DNA of 45,960 bases from positions 1-45,960 of the IMG/VR virus record IMGVR_UViG_3300034197_000041; one strand, given 5' to 3'. The notes beneath the pieces are model-generated. The model had not been told where the DNA came from. It ran no database searches and saw only the letters and a program-made list of their open reading frames with translations. The DNA is from a virus. Taxonomy: Duplodnaviria > Caudoviricetes. Both the position numbers and the translations under genes were made by a program. Of this stretch, positions 4,181 to 34,129 are shown piece after piece (position 1 is the first letter of the stretch; each line of letters begins with the position of its first letter).

Positions 4181-5876
4181 GGGCGTCTCGTAGGTAGTTG
4201 GCCTGACGCGTGGGCGCCCGGCGGAAGAGGTGATCGGGCGCCACGGCGAGCGCCAAGCCGTCGCCGTCGTCAGGGCTGCGGCCGTCGTGGCGCTTCTTAA
4301 ACACCTTCTTGGCCTCGAGCTGCTTCACGTCGTAGCCGCCCACCTTGACCCAGTCCCAGGTGCGCTCGCACAGGTCGGCCTCGAGCGCGTCGGGGGGCCG
4401 CTCGAGGGCCAGGGCCTTGAGACTCTCGGCGGCGTGCCAGTACATTTCGGTGCCTAGATCGGCGAACGCCTTCGGGTCGTGGGGGACCCCGTTGTTGTTG
4501 ACCTCGAGCACCTGGTAGTCGAGGAAGGCCCGCGTGAGGTCCTGGTCGCGCCGGAGCTGATCCACGATGCCGCCGCCGTAGCCGCCGCCGCCGTCCACCC
4601 GGATGTGCAGCGAGCTTACGCGCCGGGCCTTGAGCGCGAGCGCCTCACGCTTGACCGTCTGGGCGTAGACCACGGTGTCGAGCTGGGCCAGCCGCGCCGC
4701 CCGGTAGGCCCGCCCGCTGTGGCGCACCCAGACCGCGCCCGCGTCGTCGCCCCACCTGGCCACGTCGACCCCGATGCGGGCCTGGTGCGCGGCCTCAGGC
4801 GCGGGGGCGCGCCGCTTCGCCGCCTCGTAGCGCCCGACGGGGCAGAAGACATTCACAGCGGTGTTGCTCGGCGCGATACCCAGCACGCGGAAGAGGAACT
4901 CGGCGTCGGGCTGGTAGATGATACCGGGGCGCCAGGGCAGCTCGAACGTGTGCTGATCGGGGTCGTGCTGGGCCACCACCTCGCAGTGCCGCGTCTCGCC
5001 GTTGTCGATCATCGACTCGACGTAGTCGCGCATCACGGCGCCCGGCACGATCTCGCGGCCCGCCAGCACATTGGGGTGGGCCAGGCAGGAGATCCGAAAG
5101 TTGACCACATCCACGGCCCCGGCCGCCTTGTGGAACCGGCTGGTGCGCGTGCGCGGGTTGGCCAGCATCACCACGATCGCGATGCCGCCAGAGATCATCG
5201 TGCGGATCGCGTTGAAGACGAAGTCCTCAACGCCCTCGGCCTCGTCGACCACGAAGAGCAGGTAGGGCGCGTGCTGGCCCTGCACGCGCTCCGACCCCTG
5301 GCCGTGCGCGTTGTTGGTGGCGCGCCCCTTCACGAAGTGATCGCCGCTCGTGCTCTTCAGCTCCGGCGTTTCGAGGACGCGCCCCGGGAGCCCGCGCGCG
5401 CGGCGCTGGCTGCGGATCTCCTTGAAGAGCAGATCGTTGATCTGCTCGTAGCCGGGGGCGAAGCAGTAGCCGATCGACTCGTCGAAGCAGTCGAAGAAGT
5501 GGCTCACGATGCCCGCCGCGACCATCGTCTTGCCGACGGTGTGGCCCGCTTCCACGCGCACGGTGCGCCGGATCGTCTCGCCGGGCTGCCAGCAGGTGAG
5601 CTCGTGCGCGGCGAGCCGCTCGGACTCGTAGTCGCGCCGCTCGTGCTGCTGGCGCAGCGCCAGCGCGTAGGCGTCGAGGATCTCGGCCTGGCCGGGGGCG
5701 CCAGGCGTGCCGCGCCATGGCTGCCACCCCAGCTGCTCCGTGATGTAGCGCTCTGGCTCAAAGCGGTAGGCGTCGAAGCGACCCGTAAGCTCGCCGGCCT
5801 CCCGGCGCCGGTGGAGCTCGAGCGCCGCCCGGGCGCGCAGCTGCAGCAGGCTACTGCTGGCTGAGTAGGACAGCAT
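4173..5876 (-). CDS. terL: Terminase large subunit
   Basis: Walker A GHTVGKT, Walker B FVVDEAEG, LANP motif, RNase H-like nuclease motifs IGVDVARWGDD and SPDDGDGLA. Confidence 0.93.
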   Translation of the reverse strand: MLSYSASSSLLQLRARAALELHRRREAGELTGRFDAYRFEPERYITEQLGWQPWRGTPGAPGQAEILDAYALALRQQHERRDYESERLAAHELTCWQPGETIRRTVRVEAGHTVGKTMVAAGIVSHFFDCFDESIGYCFAPGYEQINDLLFKEIRSQRRARGLPGRVLETPELKSTSGDHFVKGRATNNAHGQGSERVQGQHAPYLLFVVDEAEGVEDFVFNAIRTMISGGIAIVVMLANPRTRTSRFHKAAGAVDVVNFRISCLAHPNVLAGREIVPGAVMRDYVESMIDNGETRHCEVVAQHDPDQHTFELPWRPGIIYQPDAEFLFRVLGIAPSNTAVNVFCPVGRYEAAKRRAPAPEAAHQARIGVDVARWGDDAGAVWVRHSGRAYRAARLAQLDTVVYAQTVKREALALKARRVSSLHIRVDGGGGYGGGIVDQLRRDQDLTRAFLDYQVLEVNNNGVPHDPKAFADLGTEMYWHAAESLKALALERPPDALEADLCERTWDWVKVGGYDVKQLEAKKVFKKRHDGRSPDDGDGLALAVAPDHLFRRAPTRQANYLRDAHE

Positions 5877-6594
5877 AGGGGTCCTCCCCAGCCGACAGCC
5901 GCTCGAGCTGATCGGGCGTCAATTTCGCGACGTCGAGGTACTTCATAATGCCGCCGGCGGGGTCGTCGCCCCAGAGCTTGCGGTGCTTTCCTAGCAGTTC
6001 GAGTGCATCTTTTGCACTGTAGAGCTCAATAGACTCCTTGCCGTCCTTATCGACGGTGTACTTCTTCACGACGCCGAGTTTGCCTCGCTGCCCAGCCTCC
6101 AGGAGGTCAAGGCGGGCAACGGCGCGCTTCACCGTCGCGGTGCGGAGGATGCGATCAGTGGGCTGCACGGCATCCTGAGTGGCCAACTTCACCACCAGGC
6201 CGCCAATGTCCACTTCGCCACTCTCCGGGTCAAGCGGCGCGCTGATCAGCGACCAGGTGAGGGTGACATCCTCTTCGTCCACCCTGAGGTAATTGCTCAT
6301 GTCGCCGCGGGCCTGAGTGCTGAGCCGGGTCAGAATCTCATTGGCCGGCATGACCTGCAGGTCCATACCGGCCTCAATAGCCGCTGAGATCTTCGGATTT
6401 CTTCGGAGTTCTGAGGCCTGTTGATCGGCGCTTTTCGCCGAAAACCCGGCGCGAATCGCCGCGTTTCGCTGATGGAGGTCGCGCAAATACTCAGAGACGA
6501 ACTTGCGGTGGCGGGGGCGCAGTTCGGCCAGCGCCGCCTCGTAGCGCTCCTGTAGAGTGAGCGGGGGAGTGGGTTGTGGGGTGGGATCGCTCAT
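5851..6594 (-). CDS. terS: Terminase small subunit
   Basis: RKFVSEYL...NAAIRAGFSAKSA...ASELRRNPKI N-terminal motif and ALELLGKH C-terminal motif. Confidence 0.9.
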   Translation of the reverse strand: MSDPTPQPTPPLTLQERYEAALAELRPRHRKFVSEYLRDLHQRNAAIRAGFSAKSADQQASELRRNPKISAAIEAGMDLQVMPANEILTRLSTQARGDMSNYLRVDEEDVTLTWSLISAPLDPESGEVDIGGLVVKLATQDAVQPTDRILRTATVKRAVARLDLLEAGQRGKLGVVKKYTVDKDGKESIELYSAKDALELLGKHRKLWGDDPAGGIMKYLDVAKLTPDQLERLSAGEDPYAVLLSQQ

Positions 6595-9611: not shown

Positions 9612-9836
9612 CTAGGCGGGCAGATCACAGTCCGCTCGCGCCTGTGCCCACGCCGCGCGCCGCGAGCGGTGGCGCCGGGTGCGGTAGGTGCCGCGCTCAG
9701 CCCAGAAGTAACGCACGACCACCGGGCCGAACTGAAGATAGCGGCACGTGTAGCCGAAGCCAGCGGCCAGCAGGGCGTCGTGCGCGTCGCTCTCGGCGGC
9801 GCCGTGGGGCTCTGGCTGGTAGAAGAGGGGGCTCAT
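9612..9836 (-). CDS. Small hypothetical protein
   Basis: 74 aa, ATGA-coupled to the recombinase stop. Confidence 0.6.
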   Translation of the reverse strand: MSPLFYQPEPHGAAESDAHDALLAAGFGYTCRYLQFGPVVVRYFWAERGTYRTRRHRSRRAAWAQARADCDLPA

Positions 9837-10774
9837 AGGGGCACGTCTCCCATCGCCTCGCCCGCCGCCCGGAGCGCCCGCTCGCCGCGCCGGTCGTAGC
9901 CGGCGGTGGTGTCGGTGCTGGCGTGGCCGGCGACGCGGGCCGCCGTGGCGAGATCGACGCCGCGATCAAGCAGATTCGAGATCAAGGTGCGGCGCATGTC
10001 ATGCGGCGTGGCGGGCGCCACGGCGGCCTCGGCGCAGCGGCGCAGCAGGACGTAGCGCACGGCGGCCGGCGTCAGGCGCCGGTCGTCGAGCGGGCGCCCC
10101 GTCCTGCTGATCGCGACGAAGAGCGGGCCGGCGGGGCGCGTGGCGGCCCACACCCGCGCCAGGGCGAGGGCGTCGCCGGCCAGGTAGACCGCGCGGTCCT
10201 TGGCGCCCTTGCCCCGCCGCACGGAGAGGCGCCCGTCGGCGGCGAGGTCGGCGAGGTCCAGCGCCGAGAGCTCAGCCCGGCGCAGGCCCCCGGCGAGGCC
10301 GACGGCGAGCAGCGCGGCGTCGCGCCGGCCGCGCGGCGAGGCGTCGGCGGCGCAGGCCCGGAAGAGCGCGGCCACCTCGGCCAGGTCCAGCATGCGCCCG
10401 CGCGGGGCGGCCTGGCCGGCGACGGGGCGCAGATCGACCAGGCGGGCGTAGTCGTCGGCCGAGAGCAGGCCGCAGCGGCGGCAGGCGAGCAGCACGCCGC
10501 GCAGGGCGGCCAGCAGGCGGTTGGCGGTCGCGGGGGCGTAGCGGGCTGCGAGCTGCTGGCGCAGGGCGGCCACCTGGTGCCAGCCCAGATCGTGCCAGGG
10601 GCAGGCGTCGGGACCGGGGCGGCGCAGGAGGGCGGCCAGGGCCTTCAGGGCGGCGGCCTGGGTGGCCGCAGAGCCGGGGGCGAGCGTGGCCAGGTAGGCG
10701 GCCGCAGGCGAGACTTCCTGAAAGTCTTCTTTTCGATCCTGTCGCATCTGGACGCGATCCGCGAGCGTGGCCAT
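9833..10774 (-). CDS. Tyrosine recombinase (Xer/resolvase-like), second copy
   Basis: GLRRAEL (R), VRRGKG (K), TPHDMRR (HxxR) and AGHAS...TTAGY (H, Y) give a complete catalytic set. ATG at 10774 with GGGAG RBS. Confidence 0.9.
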   Translation of the reverse strand: MATLADRVQMRQDRKEDFQEVSPAAAYLATLAPGSAATQAAALKALAALLRRPGPDACPWHDLGWHQVAALRQQLAARYAPATANRLLAALRGVLLACRRCGLLSADDYARLVDLRPVAGQAAPRGRMLDLAEVAALFRACAADASPRGRRDAALLAVGLAGGLRRAELSALDLADLAADGRLSVRRGKGAKDRAVYLAGDALALARVWAATRPAGPLFVAISRTGRPLDDRRLTPAAVRYVLLRRCAEAAVAPATPHDMRRTLISNLLDRGVDLATAARVAGHASTDTTAGYDRRGERALRAAGEAMGDVPL

Positions 10775-10868
10775 GGCGGGCTCCCGGGGCGGCGGCGGGG
10801 CATGGCTCAGCATAGCACGGGCGCAAAGAGCCCCCGGCGAGGGGCGCCGGGGGGCGGGCGGGGCGGTG

Positions 10869-11243: not shown

Positions 11244-12881
11244 TCACCACAGCCCGCCCTGGCTGGCGCCGTGGGCGGAGCGCTGGGCCTGCTTGAACGG
11301 GCCGGTGATCGGCGGCATCTCCAGCCGGGCGCGCCCGTGCAGGAGGTCGCCGACGGCGAGGATCTGGAGCTTCGGAAAATCCTTACCCCAGCCCGGCGAG
11401 CGGTAGAAGCCGGCGCTGGTGGCCTCTAGCCGCATCTCGCGGGTAGGCTCTTCCAAGGTGATAAAGGCGCCGAGGGCGGCCCGCTCGCGCTCGATCACCC
11501 CGCGCAAATCCCGCACGTCGCGGGAGGAAACCGCCCCACTCTTCACCTGCACCAGGGCCTGCTTCGGGGTCTCGTTCGCCTCATCGAAGAAGGTGATCAG
11601 CCCATCAACGCCACGATCGGCACCCTTCTTCCCGCGCTTGCCGTCGCCCACGTCGCCGAAAGGGCGGGCCCTGACCAGCGAGAGCGCCCACCACTGGAAC
11701 TGGTAGCGGTCCTGGCGGGCCAGCGCCTGCGCGGCGCCGAGGTCCTCGGGCTCGCCGATCACCTGGTAGGCGATGCCGGGGAACATCTCGGCTAGGCGGC
11801 TCTTCTGGATGCTGATGGCCAGGTGGGTCACATCGATGCCGAGCCACGCACGATCGAGGCGCTGGGCGGCCGCGATCGCGGTGCCGCAGCCGCAGAAGGA
11901 GTCGAGCACCAGGTCGCCGGGGTTGGAGCTGGCGGCGATGATCCGCTCGAGCAGGGCCAGGGGCTTCTGCGTCGGGTAGCCGAGGCGCTCGGCGGCTTGC
12001 GAATTCAGCGGGGGGATGTCGTCCCAAAGATTTTGAAGCGGCTGGCCCTGCGACTCGTCAAGGTACAGCTTGAGACGGATCCGCCCTCCGGGGTCTCTCG
12101 GGAAGGAGAGTCGGCCCTCGAGATCATACTGTTCCATCTTTTCACGACAAATGGACCAGCCATTGGGGTGCGGCGTATAGCCACTGTACTCATAGGTCAG
12201 GTTAGGACGGGGGCTGGGACTGCGCAGATCGCGGGTGGTGTAGCGGCGCCCATGCTCGTCCACCAACGTGTACTTCTCGGCAATGTGCTTTTCAGAGAGT
12301 GGCACGCTCGGTCGGTTCCAGGTCGCGCTATCAGATTTGGCGTAGAAGAGAAGAATGTCGGTGACATCACCATAGCGTGCCCGCGCATCGCTATGGGCGC
12401 TCGTGCGCTTCCAGACAATCTCGTTACGGAAGTTCTGCGGCCCGAAGATGGTGTCGAGCAGGATCTTCAGGTAGTGGCTGGCTGTCGGGTCGCAGTGCAG
12501 GTACAGGCTTCCCGTGGGCTTGAGCACCCGGTGCAGCTCGACGAGGCGCGCGGCCATCATCACCAGGTAGGCCATCATCGGGCTGCGGCCCAGCATCGTG
12601 CGCATCGCCCCCACCATGGTGCTGACCCGCGCCGGCGCATCGGTGACCAGCTCGCGGTAGGTCCGCTCGGCCGTCTCGCCCCACTGCCAGGTATCCCCGA
12701 AGACGGCGATCTGGGCATCGCTGAGCTTGCCCTGCTCGTCACGGAAGAGCAGGTTGAAGGTACGCTGAGAATTGAAAGGGGGATCGAGATACACCAGGTC
12801 GGCGGTGGCGTCGGCGATGTGCTCGCGCAGGATGTCGAGGTTATCGCCGTAGTAGAGCGTGTTCTGGTGCGCTGGCGGCAT
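11244..12881 (-). CDS. N6/N4 DNA methyltransferase (beta class) fused to Mrr-like restriction endonuclease domain
   Basis: YLDPPF catalytic motif, YPTQKP, DSFCGCGT SAM motif, C-terminal ADRGVDG...VQVKSG. Start taken at MPPAHQNTLYYGDNL. Confidence 0.88.
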   Translation of the reverse strand: MPPAHQNTLYYGDNLDILREHIADATADLVYLDPPFNSQRTFNLLFRDEQGKLSDAQIAVFGDTWQWGETAERTYRELVTDAPARVSTMVGAMRTMLGRSPMMAYLVMMAARLVELHRVLKPTGSLYLHCDPTASHYLKILLDTIFGPQNFRNEIVWKRTSAHSDARARYGDVTDILLFYAKSDSATWNRPSVPLSEKHIAEKYTLVDEHGRRYTTRDLRSPSPRPNLTYEYSGYTPHPNGWSICREKMEQYDLEGRLSFPRDPGGRIRLKLYLDESQGQPLQNLWDDIPPLNSQAAERLGYPTQKPLALLERIIAASSNPGDLVLDSFCGCGTAIAAAQRLDRAWLGIDVTHLAISIQKSRLAEMFPGIAYQVIGEPEDLGAAQALARQDRYQFQWWALSLVRARPFGDVGDGKRGKKGADRGVDGLITFFDEANETPKQALVQVKSGAVSSRDVRDLRGVIERERAALGAFITLEEPTREMRLEATSAGFYRSPGWGKDFPKLQILAVGDLLHGRARLEMPPITGPFKQAQRSAHGASQGGLW

Positions 12882-13124
12882 GGGGGTACCCCGTGTGCGT
12901 TGGATTGCAGTGTCAAACGTAGTATGGAGCAAGGCCAATACCAGGAAAGCTATGCGTACAGCTGTTCGACACGCACAACATAGGCCATTACAATCATAAG
13001 AACGCGGGGAAACGCGCGAACGATACGCCCTGTCTGCACATAGACAAGGCGCGTTAGACATGCGTTAGGGTTTGCGGCCCACCGGCCTCACGGCTCCGCA
13101 GTGTTTGCCAGGGCCGACACGGAT

Positions 13125-19526: not shown

Positions 19527-20528
19527 CTAGCCCTCCAGTGCCGTCCGCACGGGCTCCGCCCCGTCGAGCCCGTGGGCCCGCCGGTACAGCGCCCGCCGGG
19601 GCTCAATGTCCAGCCCCAGGTAGCGCGCGATCACCGCCGGGGTGTCGTCGCGCAGCAGCTCGCCCACCTCGGCCTTGGACAGCCCGGCCCGCCGGAGCCG
19701 CCGCGCGAAGGCGTGGCGGAAGGCGTGGCACGGACTGCCGCTCGGCAGCGCCACCCCGGCCAGGCGCGCCAGCCGCTTGACCATGCAGCGGATCAGGTTG
19801 GGCGTCACCGCCTCGCCGTTGTTGCGCGACGACACCCCGCGCAGCAGCGGCCCGCGCAGCTCGCCCCGGCGCCGGCTCAGGTAGGCCCGGAGCGCCCGGG
19901 CCGTGCGCGGGGTCCAGAACAGCATCCCCTCCTTGCCCCCGCCCTGGCCCTTCCCGATCACCCGGGCCTGCTCGCGGGCCAGGTCCACATCGCGCTGGAG
20001 CAGCGCCGACAGCTCCGCGACGCGGGCGCCCGTATCCCAGAGCAGCCACAGAATCGCCCGGTCGCGCGCCGACTCCTCCGTGAGCCCGTCGCCGGCCGCG
20101 TCGAGCAGCGCCCGAAACGACTCCTCGCTGATCGCCGGTCGCTCGCGCGTGGGGATGGGCGGCAGCGGGATGCGCCGGCCCCGGAAGGCCGCCCGCTGCC
20201 GCTCGAAGCCCTCATGCTCATCGGCCAGCCAGCCCCACAGCGCCCGCAGCGTCCGAAAGTAGCCGTGCAGGGTCGCCTCGGCCAGGCCCGGCGCGCTCCC
20301 CCGCGCCCCGCGCCCGGGCGGCGCCTCGTCCGCCAGGTGGGCGAAGAAAGCTTTCAGCTCGGCCAGATCCACATCGGCCAGGCGCGGCCCGTGCCCGCCC
20401 GCCGCCCGCCAGGCGAGCCAGCGGTCAAGCTGGGACTCGTAGAGCGTCAGCGTCTCCACCGTGCGCCGCGCCGCGCGCCGATGGGCCAGGAACGCCCGCA
20501 CCGCATCGCACACTATCGTCTCTGTCAT
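19527..20528 (-). CDS. int: Phage integrase (tyrosine recombinase)
   Basis: N-terminal SAM-like domain, DTGARVAEL (R), VIGKG (K), HAFRH (HxxR), IARYL (Y). Adjacent to the tRNA-like attP. Start may lie further upstream. Confidence 0.88.
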   Translation of the reverse strand: MTETIVCDAVRAFLAHRRAARRTVETLTLYESQLDRWLAWRAAGGHGPRLADVDLAELKAFFAHLADEAPPGRGARGSAPGLAEATLHGYFRTLRALWGWLADEHEGFERQRAAFRGRRIPLPPIPTRERPAISEESFRALLDAAGDGLTEESARDRAILWLLWDTGARVAELSALLQRDVDLAREQARVIGKGQGGGKEGMLFWTPRTARALRAYLSRRRGELRGPLLRGVSSRNNGEAVTPNLIRCMVKRLARLAGVALPSGSPCHAFRHAFARRLRRAGLSKAEVGELLRDDTPAVIARYLGLDIEPRRALYRRAHGLDGAEPVRTALEG

Positions 20529-20665
20529 CGTTCCCCGCGGGGTCGGGGCGGGCCAGGCGGCCCGCTGCCTCGGTAGATCGTGGCGCACCCGCGCCGCGCC
20601 TGTGAGATCGGCCCGATCCGTGAACAACACGTTACGCCCCATCCCCTAGCCTACAGGAGGATCGC

Positions 20666-20995
20666 GTGGTTGTGACTAAAGTGCTTCAGGAGGGCGGGGT
20701 GGTCGGGCTCGGGGCGTCGCTCGCCATCGTGGCCGTGACGCACCTCGCCGGCCCCGACGTCGCGCCCGGCGCCCGTCAGGCGCTCAACCTCAGCCTGGTC
20801 TGCGTCGGGCAGCTCGTCTGGGCCGTGCGCCGCCCGGAGCGCCCCGCCATCGACGGCGCCATCGTCGCCGCCATCGCCGCGACGATGGCCGGACTGACGA
20901 TCCGCCTGGGCGAGTGGGTCCACCGCCGGATCGACGCCGCGGCCAACCGCCGAGCCGTGGGCGCGCTGGAGGCGGCCCGCCCGCGCTGCTACTGA
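20666..20995 (+). CDS. Small multi-TM membrane protein
   Basis: CAGGAGG RBS, three hydrophobic stretches. Confidence 0.6.
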   Translation: MVVTKVLQEGGVVGLGASLAIVAVTHLAGPDVAPGARQALNLSLVCVGQLVWAVRRPERPAIDGAIVAAIAATMAGLTIRLGEWVHRRIDAAANRRAVGALEAARPRCY

Positions 20996-20998
20996 GAG

Positions 20999-21232
20999 GT
21001 GCCTGTGCGACGCCCTGCGCGCTACCCCTACCGCACCGTCGGCGAGGTGGAGGACGTGACGGCCCACCTCCTCGAACTGCTGCGCCTGCTCGAAGAGGAC
21101 CGCCGCGCCGCCGCCACCCCGGCGCAGTGGCACCGCCTCAACGCCCAGACCCGCCACGCCGAGATCGCCTACCTCTGGCTGCGCGAGATGCGCGCCGGGA
21201 TGGGCGACGAAGATCCCGACGGTGCAGTTTAG
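20999..21232 (+). CDS. Hypothetical helical protein
   Basis: 77 aa following 20995. Confidence 0.55.
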   Translation: MPVRRPARYPYRTVGEVEDVTAHLLELLRLLEEDRRAAATPAQWHRLNAQTRHAEIAYLWLREMRAGMGDEDPDGAV

Positions 21233-21398
21233 TCACAGAATCGCCCGTCGGTGCTATCACTGAACTTGTAGGAATCGCCGAGCCCCCGAGCTGGCTGCAC
21301 AGCTGGGGGGCTCATGAACCACGAATGCATCTCATGATACCACGAGATCCGTGTCAGCCAGTGACACAGCGCGGCGTCCGTCGCAAGGCGGCGCGCCG

Positions 21399-21764
21399 AT
21401 GATCCGATCAATCGACTACGACGGCATCAGCCACGCGCGCCTCACCCGCGCAATGACCCAGGCCCGCCTGCCCGCGACCACGCGCGTGCTGATGGCAGAG
21501 ATCTTTCGGGCTATCCCCGTCGGGACGTGGCGGCACATCAGCCACCAGACCCTCGCCCGGCGCCTGGGCATCAGCGAGAGCACCGTCTCACGGGGCATGG
21601 CACTCTTAGACGGCAGCCTGCTTGATGCGGACGGCGCCCAGATCAACCGCGCGCCCTTCATCGAGCGACGGCCCCGCCAAGACGGGCGGCCTGGCTACGA
21701 GATCTGCCCGCTTCCCCCGCCCGAGCTGCGCGCGAAGACGAAACGCGGAAAGGCGAGCCGATGA
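21399..21764 (+). CDS. Winged-HTH protein, paralogue 1
   Basis: SHARLTRAM...ISHQTLARRLGISESTVSRGM HTH. Confidence 0.75.
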   Translation: MIRSIDYDGISHARLTRAMTQARLPATTRVLMAEIFRAIPVGTWRHISHQTLARRLGISESTVSRGMALLDGSLLDADGAQINRAPFIERRPRQDGRPGYEICPLPPPELRAKTKRGKASR

Positions 21765-22063
21765 GCACCGCGAAGACCGCCCGCCACGCCCGCATGACCG
21801 AGTCCATGGAACAGCAGCTTTCGATAGCCGAGTTCAAGATCCTTGCTGTCCTGCGGCGCCTCATCCCCGACGGGAAGCGCCGCAAACTCGCCACTGCGAC
21901 CGTCGCCAGCGAGGCGGGGTTCAGCAAGCGCAGGGTGCTGGTCGCAATTCGTGCGATGGATGGGAAGTTCCTTGTACACCACCCGTCCAGCAATCAGCGA
22001 GACGGCTCTGTCCTTATCGAGATGCTGCTGCCGCCCGAACTGCGAGAGGAGCCCGCGTCATGA
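21761..22063 (+). CDS. Winged-HTH protein, paralogue 2
   Basis: RHARMTESM...LRRLIPDGKRRKLATATVASEAGFSKRRV, ATGA-coupled. Confidence 0.75.
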   Translation: MSTAKTARHARMTESMEQQLSIAEFKILAVLRRLIPDGKRRKLATATVASEAGFSKRRVLVAIRAMDGKFLVHHPSSNQRDGSVLIEMLLPPELREEPAS

Positions 22064-23160
22064 GCACATGGAAGGGCACAAGCCACGCGCGTATGACCCG
22101 CTCGATGGACGGGCTCTATGGCTGCGAGTACAAGGTTTTGGCGACCATTCGTCGGCTTATCCCTGATGGGCAGAGGCGCAAAGTTAGCCAGGCCGATATC
22201 GCACGGCGGGCCAACGTCTCGCCAAGCACCGTCTCCGAGACGGTGAGAAAGATCGACAGGGTATTCATCAGGCTTCACTTCGTCGGCAAGGGGCGCGGCG
22301 GGGGCTACGAGATCGAGGTTATTTCCCCGATTGGACCACTGCCGACGGAGCCCTCTGCGCCCAAGAAACCCTCGCTGAGCGAGGATTGCAATCGATCTTT
22401 CTCTTCTGGCGTTGCAACGCCTCAAACGCCAGAAGAGAAAACCTCGCTGAGCGATCATTCTATCTTCTTAGATCATGCTCATGAGCAGCAGCAGACAGCG
22501 GCTCCTTCCACGGGAGCGGGTAGCGACGAGTCCGGGCAGGCCGATCAGCTCGCTCCTGAGACGATCACGGCCCTGGCCGAGGCGGGCGCACACCCAAAGC
22601 TGATCCAGCGCGTGGCCGCCGCGAACCCGGGCTGCTCGCCGGCTGACGTGGCGGCCGCCCTGGCCGGGGCGCACGCGAAGCCGACGGCGCACACGCCGCC
22701 CGGCCTCGCGCTTGAATGCCTGGCGAACCGCCAGCCAGTCATCACGCCGCGCCTGATCGCCCCGCCCCGCCCCCGTGGCCGTGCCGCGCCCGACGCCGGG
22801 ATCGACGTGGGCCAGGCCCGGGCCTGGATCGCGCGGCACGGCGGCGCGGCCAGCCCGCCGCCGGGGGAGGTCGCGCCGCCCCCGGCCCGCGCCAGCCCGC
22901 CGCCCGGGCTGACGAGCCTGTGGCACGCCGCCCAGGCCACGCTGAAGGCCAAAACGGACAGCGGCGCCTATGACTTCTGGCTGCGCCCGCTGCGCCTGCT
23001 CAGCCTCGCCGACGGCGTGGCAACCCTCGCCGCGCCCTCGCTCGACGTGGCCAGCGTGGCGCAGACGCGCTACGGGCGGGCGATCCGCGACGCGCTGGGC
23101 TCATTTGCGGGCGGGCTGGTGCGGGTCCAGGTGATCTACGCGTCGCCCGCCGCCGACTAG
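22060..23160 (+). CDS. Replication initiator-like protein: N-terminal wHTH (paralogue 3) plus C-terminal DnaA N-terminal-like domain
   Basis: SHARMTRSM...SQADIARRANVSPSTVSETV. C-terminal LWHAAQATLK...AYDFWLRPLRLLSLADGVATLAAPS...RYGRAIRDAL matches the DnaA domain I pattern. Confidence 0.75.
   Translation: MSTWKGTSHARMTRSMDGLYGCEYKVLATIRRLIPDGQRRKVSQADIARRANVSPSTVSETVRKIDRVFIRLHFVGKGRGGGYEIEVISPIGPLPTEPSAPKKPSLSEDCNRSFSSGVATPQTPEEKTSLSDHSIFLDHAHEQQQTAAPSTGAGSDESGQADQLAPETITALAEAGAHPKLIQRVAAANPGCSPADVAAALAGAHAKPTAHTPPGLALECLANRQPVITPRLIAPPRPRGRAAPDAGIDVGQARAWIARHGGAASPPPGEVAPPPARASPPPGLTSLWHAAQATLKAKTDSGAYDFWLRPLRLLSLADGVATLAAPSLDVASVAQTRYGRAIRDALGSFAGGLVRVQVIYASPAAD
22370..22455. repeat. Candidate replication origin inside the initiator gene
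   Basis: CCTCGCTGAGCGA at 22370 and 22442 flank a perfect 16-bp inverted repeat TTTCTCTTCTGGCGTT-11-AACGCCAGAAGAGAAA (22398-22440) in a locally AT-richer patch. Confidence 0.6.
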
Positions 23161-29058: not shown

Positions 29059-29362
29059 AGGCCGCACCCCGCCCGAGCGGCCCGAGATGCGCACCTTCAC
29101 GGTCACAAGCGGCTACGGCGGCAACACGCGCCGCCCGTTCGTCGGGATCGAAGGCCCAGCGCTGCCGATCACGATGGACAGCAGCGAGGCCCGCGCGCTG
29201 GCGCTGAACATCTACGAGGCGGCGATCACGGCTGAGGCCGACGGCCTGATCGTGGAGTTCTTCACCCGTGAGATTGGCACCAGCCAGGAGGAGGCCGCGC
29301 AGATTCTCCAGAAGTTCCGCGCCTACCGCAAGCGCTGGCGCAACGAAGCGGATATGGCCTGA
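29048..29362 (+). CDS. Hypothetical protein
   Basis: GGAGG RBS, 104 aa. Confidence 0.65.
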   Translation: MKPKGRTPPERPEMRTFTVTSGYGGNTRRPFVGIEGPALPITMDSSEARALALNIYEAAITAEADGLIVEFFTREIGTSQEEAAQILQKFRAYRKRWRNEADMA

Positions 29363-29396
29363 TCCACGCCCGCATAGCGAAAGTACAGAGGTTCCA

Positions 29397-30716
29397 ATGA
29401 GTGCAGGACACGGCCCGAACATCGGCCACGGCTACGTGAAGTACGTGATCATCGACCCGGCAGGGGTCGAGCTCCCCCCGGTCGTCTTCCCCGCCCAGAT
29501 CGCCCGCGCGGCCCGCGCCGTCGCCGGGGGCCTCGTCGAGGCCCGCCACGTCCGCGTCGGCGACGTGGCGTACTGGACCGGCGACGATGCCGGCCTGGCG
29601 CCCTCGCCGATCACGATGCTGGCGCAGGAGCGCCTCGGCGACCCCACCTTCATCCCCGCGCTCGTGGCGGGGGCGCTCGATAGGTTTGGGTGTTTGAATG
29701 GATCGTCCGTCGGGCAGTGCGTGACCGGGCTACCCGCGACCTGGGCTGAGCAGGGCGATTCGTGCCGCGCGCTGGGCCAGCGGCTGCGCGACGCCTACCC
29801 CTACGAGCGCATCCGCGTCATCGCGGAGCCGCTTGGGCTCGCGTATAGCGCCATCCTTGATAACGACGGCCAGGTCGCGGGCGACACCGTGCTGACTGAG
29901 GGTCGCATAGGAGTTGTAGATCTCGGCCACCACACCGTGGACGTAGCCGAATTGCTGAAACTCGCCGTGGCCAAGGGCTCCTTTGGCACCTGGCAGCAGG
30001 GTACTGCGACCCCGCTCCGCCAGATCCAGGCTCGGCTCTCCGCGTCCTTTGAGCGCGAGCTGAGCCTGGCCGAGACCGATCAGGCGGTCAGGGGCGAGGG
30101 CCTTTTTGTGCACGGGGATTGGTTTCCCTTGCCGCAGGGATGGGATCGGCCATTCGTCGAGCAGAGTCAGATTATCCTCGCGCGCCTGCGCGAGGTGTTT
30201 GGGCGCGGTGGGCGCCTTGATGCAATCCTGGTGGGCGGCGGAGGGGCAGAGGAGCGGCGTATCGTCGAGCCGATTTTGGCATATTACCCGCACGCGCGGA
30301 TCGTCCCTCAGCCGCAGACGGCGATAGCCCGCGGCTACGCCCGCCTCGCCCGACGCCTAGGGCGGCGCCTGAGCGAGGAACCAGGTGAGGCGCCGCCACG
30401 AACGACCTACCGGATGACCTCGGGCGATAACTACCGAGCGCGCAAGGCTGGCGCCCAGGGGGAGATTACAGACATCGAGTGGGATACGTTGCGCGCTCGT
30501 TTTGGGGGGCGTTGTGTTGGTTGCGGGCAGGTTGGTGCGGGGATGGACCACATCGTTCCGCTGTCTCGAGGCGGAATGCATACGATCGACAATATCCAGC
30601 CGCTGTGCCAGTCCTGCAACTCTGCGAAACGCAATGAGATCATCGATCTGCGGAACAGGCCATTTCCCGGCCCGGGCTGGTACAACCTCTGGAAGCGCGG
30701 GAAGCTTGAGCTATGA
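29397..30716 (+). CDS. ParM/StbA-like actin-fold protein fused to a C-terminal HNH endonuclease domain
   Basis: NIGHGYVK (phosphate 1), TGLP, IAEPLG, VVDLGHHTVD (phosphate 2), LVGGGGA (adenosine) and PQTAIARG, then CVGC...DHIVPLSRGG...NIQPLCQSCNSAK in one uninterrupted frame. Confidence 0.85.
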   Translation: MSAGHGPNIGHGYVKYVIIDPAGVELPPVVFPAQIARAARAVAGGLVEARHVRVGDVAYWTGDDAGLAPSPITMLAQERLGDPTFIPALVAGALDRFGCLNGSSVGQCVTGLPATWAEQGDSCRALGQRLRDAYPYERIRVIAEPLGLAYSAILDNDGQVAGDTVLTEGRIGVVDLGHHTVDVAELLKLAVAKGSFGTWQQGTATPLRQIQARLSASFERELSLAETDQAVRGEGLFVHGDWFPLPQGWDRPFVEQSQIILARLREVFGRGGRLDAILVGGGGAEERRIVEPILAYYPHARIVPQPQTAIARGYARLARRLGRRLSEEPGEAPPRTTYRMTSGDNYRARKAGAQGEITDIEWDTLRARFGGRCVGCGQVGAGMDHIVPLSRGGMHTIDNIQPLCQSCNSAKRNEIIDLRNRPFPGPGWYNLWKRGKLEL

Positions 30717-31066
30717 GCCTGAAGCTCCAGGGAATCAGGCTTGGCCCGGATCTGCGCGCCCTGGTGGATGCCGCTGGCCCCCTTAATCTGGCGGCCCGGG
30801 CACTGATTATTCTGGGCGCTGCCGCAGTCGGGCAGTCGGTTGGGTATTTGGAGCCCACGATCTGCACGCTCATCGGGTCTGGCGATCTGAGCCCTGCAAC
30901 GACTGCGGCACTTCGAAGGCTGCTTCGGGGCGGCGATAGCACCGGCGCTATCACCCTTGAAGAACTGCTTGATGAGCCATTGCCGGGGCCTGTGGCGTGG
31001 ACATCGCCAGAGGAGCTTGAGGCAGTGCTTAGCGATGATCTTGTTACGGTCGGCATGGAGGTCTGA
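30713..31066 (+). CDS. Small protein coupled to ParM-HNH, candidate ParR-like adaptor
   Basis: ATGA overlap, N-terminal strand-helix-helix-like start, acidic C-terminus. Function inferred from position only. Confidence 0.55.
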   Translation: MSLKLQGIRLGPDLRALVDAAGPLNLAARALIILGAAAVGQSVGYLEPTICTLIGSGDLSPATTAALRRLLRGGDSTGAITLEELLDEPLPGPVAWTSPEELEAVLSDDLVTVGMEV

Positions 31067-31215
31067 GCGTTTAGTCACGCCGGGGGCATTCCCCGGCACA
31101 ATAGAGACGGCGCCGCTTCCGACGGCGCCGGGGTTGGGGTCAGGGCGATGTGCGTTCCCTGACCGTGGCCCGACTAGAGCATAGCAGAGCCGTCAATCGA
31201 AAAGGATGTGCGACC

Positions 31216-31833
31216 ATGTCGAAGAGGTACCCCGGCCTGATGGCCGACCGCGTCGCCGCGCGCGACGCCGCCGAGATCCCCGAGCCCGACGCCGCCCCGA
31301 TGGCCCGACGCCCCGAGCCGATGCTGAGCCGCCCCGCCGACCGCGCCCCCGCCGTGCCGACGTTCCCTGATCAGGCGCCGACCGCCTCGCCCGCGCTGAT
31401 CGCCACGGTGATCGCCGTGGCCGTGGTCGCGCTGCTGGTGCTGGCGCCGCGCTTCCTCGGCGGCCCCCCGCCGCCCACGGCGCCCGTGCCGCCCCCCGCG
31501 CCCACGGCGACGATGGACCCGGCGGCGATCCCGCCGGCCCCCTGGCCACCGGTGGCCGCGCCCGGCGCCGCGCCCACGGAGGCGCCCGCCGACGCCGTGC
31601 CCACCGCGGCGAGCTTCCTTGAGCCCGTCCCTGGCCAGCAGCAGGCCCCCGCCCCGCCGGCTGCCCCGGCCCCGGCCGCCCCGGCGTGGGTGCCCCCGGC
31701 GCCCGCCGCGCCGCCCGCCGCGCCGCCCCCGCCCCCCGAGAACACGCCGTCGGCGCTGACGCTGATGGCGACGCCGATGACCAGCCTGGACGCGCTCGGC
31801 TGCACGCCCGGCCACTGCGGCGCCCGCCCGTGA
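31216..31833 (+). CDS. Single-TM Pro/Ala-rich membrane protein
   Basis: AAAGGA RBS, TM LIATVIAVAVVALLVLAP. Confidence 0.65.
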   Translation: MSKRYPGLMADRVAARDAAEIPEPDAAPMARRPEPMLSRPADRAPAVPTFPDQAPTASPALIATVIAVAVVALLVLAPRFLGGPPPPTAPVPPPAPTATMDPAAIPPAPWPPVAAPGAAPTEAPADAVPTAASFLEPVPGQQQAPAPPAAPAPAAPAWVPPAPAAPPAAPPPPPENTPSALTLMATPMTSLDALGCTPGHCGARP

Positions 31834-32483
31834 GCGCCGACAAGTGGTTCTTCGCCGGCTGCGTTTTGGCAGCCGGCTACTACCTCTGGGCGGGCATGCC
31901 CCCGCTGCTGCAGCTATCGGCGCCGCGCCCCGCCCTGGCCGGCGCGGCGGTGGCCGTGGCGCCCTCGGCCGCGCCCGCGCCGGCCAGGGCAGCTGCCCCG
32001 CCCCCGCCCCCGCCCGCGCCCGCCGCCCCGGCCCTGGGCGACGGCGGCCCGGTGGGCTGCCCCGTGGCGCCCGTGCAGGGCCGCGTGGCGATGACCCAGG
32101 GCTACGGCGTGGGCAGCCACACGCCCGCCGCGATCTGGGGCGCCGTCGATCTCGCCATCGATGGGGACGGCGACGGTGCCGCCGACGTCGGGGCCAGCTG
32201 GGGCGCGCCGATTGTCGCGACCCACGCGGGCACCGTGACGGCGACGCCCAACAGCCAGCCGGCGGGGAATCACGTCTGGGTCGACTCGCCGGACGGCTGG
32301 CGCACGGGCTACAGCCACCTGCAGGACATCCTGGTCAGCAGCGGCCAGTGGGTTGAGGCCGGGGCGCAGCTGGGGACGATGGGCTCGACGGGGGCGGCGT
32401 CAGGCCCCCACCTCGACTACCAGGTGTGGCGCGGCGGGGCCAACGTCGATCCCACGCCGCTCGTCGAGCCGTGTTTTTACTAA
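31830..32483 (+). CDS. M23 family metallopeptidase with N-terminal membrane anchor
   Basis: H...GAVDLA, G.PIVATHAGTV, GNHVWV, YSHL, GSTGAASGPHLDYQV, VDP. Confidence 0.88.
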   Translation: MSADKWFFAGCVLAAGYYLWAGMPPLLQLSAPRPALAGAAVAVAPSAAPAPARAAAPPPPPPAPAAPALGDGGPVGCPVAPVQGRVAMTQGYGVGSHTPAAIWGAVDLAIDGDGDGAADVGASWGAPIVATHAGTVTATPNSQPAGNHVWVDSPDGWRTGYSHLQDILVSSGQWVEAGAQLGTMGSTGAASGPHLDYQVWRGGANVDPTPLVEPCFY

Positions 32484-32492
32484 GAGGACTCT

Positions 32493-32987
32493 ATGCCGGT
32501 CACATCCCGCTGGCTCGATGAGCCGCCGCCCGAGCCGCCGCCGCTCAATGTGGGGATCGTCGCGATCTCACTCCTGATCGTCGGCCTCTCCGTCTACGCC
32601 ATGCTGGCGTTCTTCCTGGCGCCCGCGCCCGAAAGCGCCGCCGCGCCCACGCCGCCGGCAGGGGCTGCGACCACGGTCGCAGCCCCTGCCGGCGTGGCGG
32701 AAGCCCCCGCCCCCGCCGCGCCCACGGCCCCCGCAGCGGTGGCGCCGCTGCCCACGGCGGCGCCGACCGAGGCGCCGCCGGCCACGCCGATCCCCGCGAC
32801 CGCCGCGCCGCCCAGCCCGGCCTGCCCGCCCGCGATCGCGCTCCCCCCCGGGGCGCGTGTGGGCTGGCTGGCCCGGGCGGCCGGCTGCCCGGGCGTCCTG
32901 TACGCCCGGGTCAACGGCGAGAGCCGCTGGGTGCTCAAGCCGGCCGACTTCCCCGACGATCTGTATGCACAGCTCCCCGAGCTGTAG
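32493..32987 (+). CDS. Single-TM Pro/Ala-rich protein
   Basis: TM GIVAISLLIVGLSVYAMLAFFL, small C-terminal domain with a Cys pair. Confidence 0.65.
   Translation: MPVTSRWLDEPPPEPPPLNVGIVAISLLIVGLSVYAMLAFFLAPAPESAAAPTPPAGAATTVAAPAGVAEAPAPAAPTAPAAVAPLPTAAPTEAPPATPIPATAAPPSPACPPAIALPPGARVGWLARAAGCPGVLYARVNGESRWVLKPADFPDDLYAQLPEL
32665..32682. repeat. Dispersed 18-bp palindrome, copy 5
   Basis: CTGCGAC CACG GTCGCAG. Confidence 0.85.
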
Positions 32988-32998
32988 CCGAGGCCACC

Positions 32999-33445
32999 AT
33001 GCGCAAACTCTCTGCGGTCATCGCTCAAGGATTCTCGTACTCGGCGACTCTGGGCGCCGCGCTGTTCTTCCTCAACGAGGGCAGCGCCCTCATCGTGTGG
33101 GCCTTCGCGATCGTGATCGCCGCCGCGTTCGAGGCCCTCTTCTTCGGCATGAAGGAGGCCCTGTGGGCGCCGGGCCTTGGTAACAAGGCCCTCGGCGCCG
33201 GGGGCTTTTTTATCGACGGCCTGATCAACACCGCCGGTATTATGGGCCTCGCCATCGGCGCCAAGCTCTTGACCTTCGGCCCGGTACCGCTTATCCTGGG
33301 ATCACTCGATGTGGATGCCACCAACCCTGACGCCCGGCTGACAGCGGCCCTGTCGATCAGTTTCGCGCTGGGGATGGTGCTCTCGATTGCTCCACACATT
33401 CTCTGGCGAGCGGGCAAGCGGCCCGGGCGGGCCGCAGCGGCGTAG
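32999..33445 (+). CDS. Polytopic membrane protein (about 4 TM)
   Basis: 148 aa, mostly hydrophobic. Confidence 0.75.
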   Translation: MRKLSAVIAQGFSYSATLGAALFFLNEGSALIVWAFAIVIAAAFEALFFGMKEALWAPGLGNKALGAGGFFIDGLINTAGIMGLAIGAKLLTFGPVPLILGSLDVDATNPDARLTAALSISFALGMVLSIAPHILWRAGKRPGRAAAA

Positions 33446-33460
33446 TAGCAGGAGGGGGCG

Positions 33461-34129
33461 ATGGGTGGCGAGCCGACGATCTGGGCGTGGCTGGCGTTTT
33501 GGGTGCAGATCGCGTTGGCGGTCTACGCCTTCTTTGTGTTCGTCGCCGACCGCGTCCCCGGCCTGGCCGGGGTCGGCGCGGTCGTGCGCAAGGCCAGCTG
33601 GAAGCTCCTCATGATCTTCATCCAGCGCTGGGGCGACTGGCTGATCTGCTACATCTACGGCCCGCTCTGGCGGACGATCATCAGCCTGCCGCGCACCCTC
33701 TGGAGCGGCCCGCCCCCGCCCCCAGAGGCCGCCCCCGTGTCAAGGCTTTCCGTGCCGCTCCCCGGCGCGCTCCCCGGCGCTTATGTCGTGCCCGAGGCTT
33801 TGTCCACCCCCCAGAACGCCCCGTTCGCCCCGTCCGCCGTTCGTCCGTCTGCCCCGTCCGCGCCCGTGGAGCCCCCGGCGCCCCCGGCGCCCGCTGCCGT
33901 GGAGCGGCTAACGGTTGACAGATCGCGGGAGGCGCTGATTGAGGCGCTGCTCGCCGCGGGGTGGTCGGCGACGCAGATCCGCGAGCAGCTGCGCGGGGCG
34001 AACGCCACCACGGGCCAGGAGATCGAGGCGGCCCGGGCGCGCCTGGCTGAGGCGAGCGCCCCCCGCGCCACGCCCCTCGCCAGGCGCGCGCTCGCCGACG
34101 GCGTGGCCTTCCGCGAGCCCGCGCCGTAG
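33461..34129 (+). CDS. Membrane protein with Pro-rich linker and C-terminal HTH-like segment
   Basis: N-terminal TMs, EALIEALLAAGWSATQIREQLRG. Confidence 0.65.
   Translation: MGGEPTIWAWLAFWVQIALAVYAFFVFVADRVPGLAGVGAVVRKASWKLLMIFIQRWGDWLICYIYGPLWRTIISLPRTLWSGPPPPPEAAPVSRLSVPLPGALPGAYVVPEALSTPQNAPFAPSAVRPSAPSAPVEPPAPPAPAAVERLTVDRSREALIEALLAAGWSATQIREQLRGANATTGQEIEAARARLAEASAPRATPLARRALADGVAFREPAP

Follow-up and report, generated by a model that had tools for sequence, protein, structure and literature searches.

An actin-like protein fused to an HNH nuclease domain

The window analysed here, a stretch of 45,960 nucleotides from the viral record IMGVR_UViG_3300034197_000041, contains an open reading frame (ORF) of 439 codons at 29397–30716 (+) that is open throughout, with no internal stop. 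Codons 1–325 (29397–30371, +) encode a ParM-like actin-fold domain that carries Asn at the phosphate-1 position and belongs to a family found on Chloroflexia mobile elements, and codons 326–439 (30372–30716, +) encode a linker and a minimal zinc-binding HNH domain. The next ORF (117 aa, 30713–31066, +) overlaps the fusion ORF by ATGA at 30713–30716 and encodes a candidate ParR-like adaptor. The motor motifs are present in order (GPNIGHG, with N8 as the phosphate-1 residue, E144, D175/G177 and GGGG), and those of the HNH domain are intact (C373/C376, D384-H385, N399 and C404/C407-N408). In Pfam, HNH (PF01844) matches residues 373–414 with E 1e-11 and 45 bits against a cut-off of 21.4, and ALP_N (E 2e-4) and MreB-like_C (E 6e-4) match below their curated cut-offs; the top NCBIfam match, plasmid segregation protein ParM (E 2e-13), lies far below its own. 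The initial annotation of this DNA had described a ParM-like actin and an intact HNH domain in one ORF, followed by a coupled small partner gene, and both descriptions hold, the partner belonging to a conserved family.

Continuity across the junction at 30360–30420 was borne out by assembled contigs of four out of four peat runs, which cross it with no differences (X1, 29224–31600; X2, 29477–31600; X3, 30110–30578; X4, 30283–30703); the fused allele is the only one in the contigs of these runs. All four are peat runs of 2020 that may represent one campaign, and coverage in runs X5–X7 does not reach the junction. The actin–HNH fusion is confirmed as real. It is extremely improbable that an assembly error joined two genes: the evidence consists of contigs, and the two deepest runs (X1 and X2) could come from the source sample itself, but four separately assembled runs are identical across the junction.

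The record represents a tailed temperate phage: the window encodes capsid, scaffold, portal, terminase small subunit and tail proteins as well as two integrases, and its ends share a 29-nt repeat. We describe it as a peat-bog phage, the actin-like part of which is predicted to position phage DNA. Two separate tyrosine integrase or recombinase genes lie in this one 46-kb phage (integrase 1, 9833–10813, −; integrase 2, 19527–20642, −). A DNA methylase fused to an Mrr-like or inactive restriction endonuclease domain is encoded at 11244–13061, and a 512-aa ORF at 21622–23160, with helix-turn-helix (HTH) matches, a C-terminal domain resembling the N-terminal domain of DnaA and a lower GC3 of 0.74, is a candidate replication initiator. 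The sequence TTTAGTCAC has three exact copies (0 in 100 shuffles), which precede integrase 2 (20672–20680, −), precede the replication-initiator region (21228–21236, +) and follow the adaptor gene (31070–31078, +); it is likely to be a phage promoter or operator element. Upstream of the motor, a 107-aa ORF (29093–29346) has a copy of about 87–90% identity on the commoner X1 and X2 contigs (depth 50–69). Proline-rich membrane-like ORFs and an M23 peptidase lie downstream of the adaptor (31150–34129), a position at which many relatives (loci L005, L006, L042, L047, L052 and L053) have an FtsK/SpoIIIE-like ATPase. These proline-rich, M23 and FtsK-like genes recall what we take to be cell-to-cell spread modules of filamentous bacteria.

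A putative ParM clade of Chloroflexia mobile elements

An AlphaFold model of the window protein has a pLDDT of about 90 across most of residues 1–325. Confidence is low at 330–359, partly because the alignment used held no other HNH rows. In Foldseek, the motor model matched pSK41 ParM best (3js6, E 1e-16); the top matches also include Dh-cParM1, pCBH ParM and Ta0583, and the second (8x1i, E 1e-15) is of the chromosome-encoded cParMR type. Structure matches in the Atlas are to ParM/StbA, with TM of 0.79–0.84 by target. The actin part is thus predicted to fold like ParM, and those of its homologues that carry a name are annotated as ParM/StbA in Chloroploca and Oscillochloris.

The initial annotation had noted Asn in place of the phosphate-1 Asp. 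The residue is present, as N8, but does not come with the fusion: all 120 aligned motor proteins (the matches listed, 120 of 229) have Asn at position 8, alongside conserved G10, K15, E144, D175, G177 and the GGG loop, and the residue is therefore unrelated to the fusion. Among representatives, 45 of the 48 with at least 34% identity have Asn at this position, and 12 of 13 more distant ones have Asp. Phosphate-1 Asn is therefore a mark of the clade and not of the fusion. Two distant Asp-type actin-like proteins, P0174 (646 aa) and P0203 (773 aa), carry long N-terminal extensions.

Because 14 of 16 genome loci with the motor family are Chloroflexota, and the family matches 35 of 167 genomes of one Chloroflexia order, we infer a Chloroflexia host. 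Genes near the motor loci (117 ORFs picked from 22 loci) encode integrases, IstB-like loaders, primases, Replic_Relax proteins, FtsK-like ATPases and M23 peptidases. A single-sequence scan of viral data with the motor returned no match, a search of plasmids returned two weak ParM matches, and a search of cultured phages returned HNH matches alone among the 25 of 81 rows listed. From sequence comparison, the motor family appears to be a ParM clade of Chloroflexia phages or prophages and integrative elements.

An apparently private fusion

A count of homologues with and without HNH had been set beforehand, and no second fusion emerged from it. All 119 non-self motor homologues among the matches listed (120 of 229) lack an HNH annotation and measure 323–344 aa, and the whole-protein search gave no fused form above 359 bits (best 120 of 228). 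Among the best 150 representatives at 50% identity, no actin-type match reaches the HNH part, although such clustering can hide fusions, since the window's own protein is missing from this set; seven long representatives read through contain no HNH. At the level of loci, 92 motor-gene ends were found, of which 29 duplicate another in their last 120 nt; the 63 distinct ones include the window. Fusion is seen at none of the 62 other loci, some of which are close relatives and not independent, and their longest motor C-terminal tail is 24 aa, against 115 in the window. The locus survey does not extend to the surroundings of the nine nearest motor homologues, P0003–P0011, where a separate HNH gene may lie nearby. 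In a tree of 57 rows, built by a quick method with SH-aLRT support only, the window protein is sister to the unfused P0003 (SH-aLRT 98), inside an unfused clade. On these sequences, the fusion looks private to this phage.

The initial annotation had offered two readings, a filament- or nucleotide-regulated nuclease or an HNH element that invaded the end of a partition gene. Invasion of the partition gene's end stands, whereas the regulated nuclease loses ground because all listed homologues are without HNH, which is half of what that annotation had named as counting against it.

Relatives of the HNH domain

Across residues 326–439, Pfam gives HNH-type matches only, with no separate DNA-binding domain. 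The closest HNH relative among the best 150 representatives is a stand-alone protein of 130 aa, P0166, which is 61% identical across window residues 341–438. Relatives in this set are stand-alone (92–130 aa) or joined to varied domains, and some carry C-terminal extensions that, by eye, resemble HTH or ribbon-helix-helix domains. A word-index search with the HNH part gave no match, nor did viral scans for P0166 and for its motif. The HNH type matches 22 of 401 Chloroflexia-class genomes (a tally that includes two unpublished genomes), and at none of 11 HNH loci examined in Chloroflexia genomes (11 of 12 returned) does a motor or partner gene lie within about 1.5 kb. Two familiar roles were considered and rejected. 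For a known defence system, PADLOC returned generic HNH matches only. For a terminase-associated HNH of the HK97 type, the gene of which sits directly beside the terminase and cos site in the sections of PMC10448857 covered, the terminase small subunit (5851–6594) is about 24 kb from the window HNH.

One other locus, L002, has an HNH at the motor/partner junction, as a separate 179-aa gene that is 42% identical to the window HNH over 66 aa. Because the L002 motor falls outside the window's clade in the tree, HNHs seem to have reached this junction twice (in the window and in L002), apparently independently. The L002 HNH begins with a helix that resembles the partner (35% probability and E 4e-4 in hhalign), and the tail of P0166 is weakly partner-like (3 bits, tied third among 297 tails), with no match when P0166 was aligned with the partner profile in hhalign.

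These observations bear on the idea that selection keeps the HNH in the partition machine, where a tether to the filament or segrosome would aim its nicks at phage circles, at the DNA of the host or at elements in the same cell. Its active site is intact, two independent arrivals at the junction would fit, and possible partner-derived pieces on two other HNHs would bring the ways of tethering to three. We nevertheless consider this explanation unlikely: none of the 62 loci or 119 listed homologues is fused, an HNH lies at the junction in 1 of 60 loci, and unrelated cargo enters the same site. The partner-like pieces are weak and would also result from insertion into the adaptor gene, and motor–adaptor deletion chimeras exist in the family. 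Such chimeras join the N-terminal half of the motor to an adaptor-like C terminus, apparently by internal deletion (L038, 791–1945; L057, 825–1979; and P0167).

Cargo and frame joining at the motor/partner junction

In 50 of the 60 loci besides the window that extend 400 nt or more past the motor, the partner lies directly 3′ of it. Cargo occupies the junction in 8 of the 60: PIN toxin–antitoxin genes (L016, L046 and L048), antitoxin-like ORFs (L042), DUF4058 (L044), a zinc ribbon (L019), a coiled-coil ORF (L008) and the separate HNH gene of L002. L046 has no partner within 4 kb, L073 has a gap of 103 nt, and L089 is a distant family member without a partner.

Motor and next gene are coupled by an RTGA overlap in 36 of 62 loci (RTGA followed by GC in 13), 7 of 41 motor genes checked end in CGATGA, and 97 of 118 motors end 6–8 residues past a GYARLA motif. 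At the relatives' motor end, the window reads TGA, out of frame, and then GC (30360–30374, +), which is likely to be a remnant of a stop/start overlap; the chance of an out-of-frame TGAGC at the family's end position is about 0.02 in a span of 5–7 codons. Read from this remnant, the HNH part has an N terminus that matches those of stand-alone relatives in length. In a related contig from run X1 (one contig, depth 2.7), the motor ends in the G-R-R letters that the window also has, with ATGA and a new ORF start next to them. Given the RTGA overlaps, the TGAGC remnant and the ATGA end of the X1 contig, a +1 frameshift at the coupled overlap appears to be the simplest route to the fusion.

The composition of the locus changes inside the motor gene. 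GC3 falls from 0.95 to 0.75 at a change point at motor codon 94 (0 of 300 permutations), is 0.70 in the HNH and 76/117 in the partner, and returns to 0.9–1.0 by 31210. The resulting lower-GC3 block (29679–31200, right edge approximate) takes in the 3′ two-thirds of the motor gene, the HNH and the adaptor. Because of this change point, and because a comparable drop occurs in 0 of 32 other loci, the 3′ motor part, HNH and partner are likely to have arrived as one block.

Alternatively, the block could be the co-conversion tract of a selfish homing nickase that targets the conserved motor end in relatives without an HNH, with fusion securing its expression. The insertion lies just past the nearly invariant ARGYARLARR end, the lower GC3 extends on both sides of the HNH, and identity of the window motor to P0003, 83% at first, declines along the gene to 69%; according to the covered sections of PMC10448857, the neighbourhood of essential genes and the boundaries of exchange are where homing nucleases cluster. 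Ordinary module exchange, however, accounts equally for the conserved site and the GC3 block. Moreover, the 114-aa part has no separate DNA-binding domain, close HNH relatives are located elsewhere, and there is no spread, in that same-sample relatives are HNH-free at this point (on low-depth contigs). We judge a homing nickase to be distinctly improbable.

A candidate centromere inside the adaptor gene

A profile built without the window partner recovered it with E 7e-19. Members of its family join a conserved N-terminal domain through a variable linker to a conserved acidic/hydrophobic C-terminal tail, which is the layout of ParR in the sections of PMC5016525 covered. The N-terminal pattern suits a ribbon-helix-helix by eye only. 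The monomer model shows helices and no strand, fold searches with it gave no significant match and none for ribbon-helix-helix, and the Atlas leads, MetJ and Plasmid_stab_B at 0.80, fell below its bar. The lack of structural support for a ribbon-helix-helix, a fold that the partner may nonetheless have, counts against the interpretation below.

The linker region of the partner gene holds short repeats. Period-11 self-similarity of at least 15/22 occurs in 17 of 59 loci versus 0 of 290 motor-gene control blocks, and period 12 at a score of at least 16 in 6 of 59 loci versus 1 of 290 controls. The period-11 profile is flat upstream of the operon and peaks 180–300 nt into the adaptor gene. Units lie exactly 11 nt apart, for example at 208, 219, 230 and 241 in L001, or 12 nt apart in L003, and they form no second cluster within those loci. 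At a period of 11 nt, successive copies fall in different reading frames, suggesting that it is the DNA on which selection acts. The remaining 42 of 59 loci, the window included (score 10 of 22), fall below the period-11 threshold.

In the window, two inverted 12-mers that start at adaptor codon 74 (30932–30955) form the candidate centromere. They lie at the position homologous to that of the repeats in relatives and resemble the four units of L003, the partner of which ranks among the window's closest. An 18-bp palindrome, earlier suggested as the site that the partner binds, was located here, at 30935–30952 inside the partner gene, but it is unremarkable alone, as 35 sites in the window are equally or more symmetric. 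The 24-mer palindrome is likewise unremarkable alone, with 27 of all 24-mers as symmetric. Only 34 nt separate the upstream gene from the motor start. We regard the partner-gene repeats as a likely candidate centromere within the adaptor coding sequence. A near-copy of the 12-mer, intergenic and upstream of the replication region (21250–21261), is a possible, statistically weak second adaptor site, and a further weak copy lies at 12360.

Had the fusion disabled the motor, the locus might now be decaying. The fusion is a singleton and the window's candidate site has two units versus four in L003, but the motor keeps its active-site residues and the adaptor its tail, and the window's terminal branch in the motor tree is modestly longer than that of its sister (0.26 versus 0.17), making decay very unlikely.

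A probable partition-like system with an HNH passenger

Taken together, these data make it fairly probable that the ParM-like motor and its coupled adaptor are a type II partition-like system for excised phage DNA, in which the HNH is a recent, frameshift-fused cargo and a tolerated passenger. A free-standing HNH gene would have entered the motor/adaptor junction, with its translation coupled to that of the motor. Recombination near codon 94 would have brought the 3′ motor part, the HNH and the adaptor into the phage as one block, and a +1 frameshift at the stop/start overlap would have joined the motor and HNH frames. Adaptor dimers may bind the repeats in their own gene, and their tails may engage the motor filament, so that phage circles would be positioned or segregated while the HNH hangs from the motor on a flexible linker.

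That the HNH is a passenger is suggested by the unfused state of all 119 listed homologues and all 62 loci, the unfused clade around the window protein, the position of L002 outside it and the cargo in 8 of 60 loci. It is also suggested by HNH relatives that are stand-alone or variously fused, and by the 11 HNH loci, none of which is beside a motor or partner. Its toleration is consistent with the low linker confidence at 330–359 and with AlpC–CFP, which still forms filaments in the sections of PMC4446434 covered. Against this reading stand the intact HNH residues, the fused allele as the sole one in four runs, the two HNH arrivals, and the partner-like pieces on the L002 HNH and P0166. The initial annotation had further argued that a partition system beside an integrase implies an additional extrachromosomal state. 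A plasmid prophage state is not required, as CGP3 (PMC4446434) and SXT/R391 (PMC4489591) show a transient excised form in the parts of these papers covered.

A bolder proposal, which we hold to be quite unlikely, is a cytoskeleton-guided nuclease cassette. Carried by the filament and adaptor, the HNH would reach the partition site of a related element in the same cell and nick it, so as to convert or exclude that element. With the centromere located in the adaptor gene, a 1.5-kb block of 3′ motor part, HNH, adaptor and site could spread as a self-contained specificity unit, and HNHs would have been recruited repeatedly, fused to the motor, to an adaptor helix or to the adaptor tail.

The fusion alone is probably a snapshot of how cargo genes fuse where the stop and start of coupled genes overlap, as well as a natural experiment on how much the C terminus of a ParM filament tolerates. 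The family behind it may matter more, as a ParM clade with an invariant Asn and a candidate centromere in the adaptor gene. Adaptor and internal site would move and evolve together and, should the binding prove real, dozens of natural pairs would allow a direct test of centromere–adaptor co-evolution. An HNH regulated by the filament would instead amount to a nuclease that a bacterial cytoskeleton positions, of which we found no description in the literature searched. In that literature (with most subscription papers and supplements outside its scope) we also found nothing on a phosphate-1 Asn or this ParM clade, on an actin-like or ParM protein fused to an HNH, or on a centromere inside parR; a family survey of actin-like proteins could already include this clade.

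Comparison with known systems

The family of the window locus shares with ParMRC systems (R1, pSK41 and pCBH) an actin-fold motor gene followed by a small adaptor gene, a conserved C-terminal tail on the adaptor, and short repeats about one helical turn apart. By contrast, the phosphate-1 residue is Asp in ParMRC and Asn across the window family, and the ParMRC centromere lies upstream of the operon (in the covered part of PMC5016525), whereas the candidate repeats of the window family lie inside the adaptor gene. The window system thus fails two textbook features of type II partition, the phosphate-1 Asp and the upstream centromere. It also differs in that its family resides on integrative elements and phages, and in the C-terminal HNH of the window member.

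AlpC/AlpA/alpS of CGP3 likewise comprises an actin-like protein and an adaptor on an integrating prophage, which act on the excised DNA of this integrated Corynebacterium prophage. Its gene order is unlike the motor-then-adaptor order here, alpS lies in the upstream promoter region as opposed to internal repeats, and no nuclease domain is mentioned for AlpAC (all from the sections of PMC4446434 covered). A further parallel is srpMRC, a type II partition system on SXT/R391 integrative and conjugative elements with a transient circular form. Many window-family loci similarly have integrase, Replic_Relax, FtsK-like or primase genes nearby, although the srpMRC elements are gammaproteobacterial and conjugative, and the likeness drawn here is one of element type (PMC4489591, covered in part). 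The cParMR systems (Dh-cParM1 and Cb-cParM) also comprise ParM/ParR pairs off plasmids, with palindromic binding sites. Their binding site flanks the genes, in contrast to the candidate site inside the window adaptor gene, and the main text of PMC12270681 makes no mention of Chloroflex-, phage, fusion or HNH. Finally, the window HNH resembles free-standing phage HNHs (PF01844; phrog_1035 and phrog_8660) in being minimal and intact, with two CxxC pairs, and departs from them in being fused to an actin-fold protein, with no AP2, HTH or similar domain.
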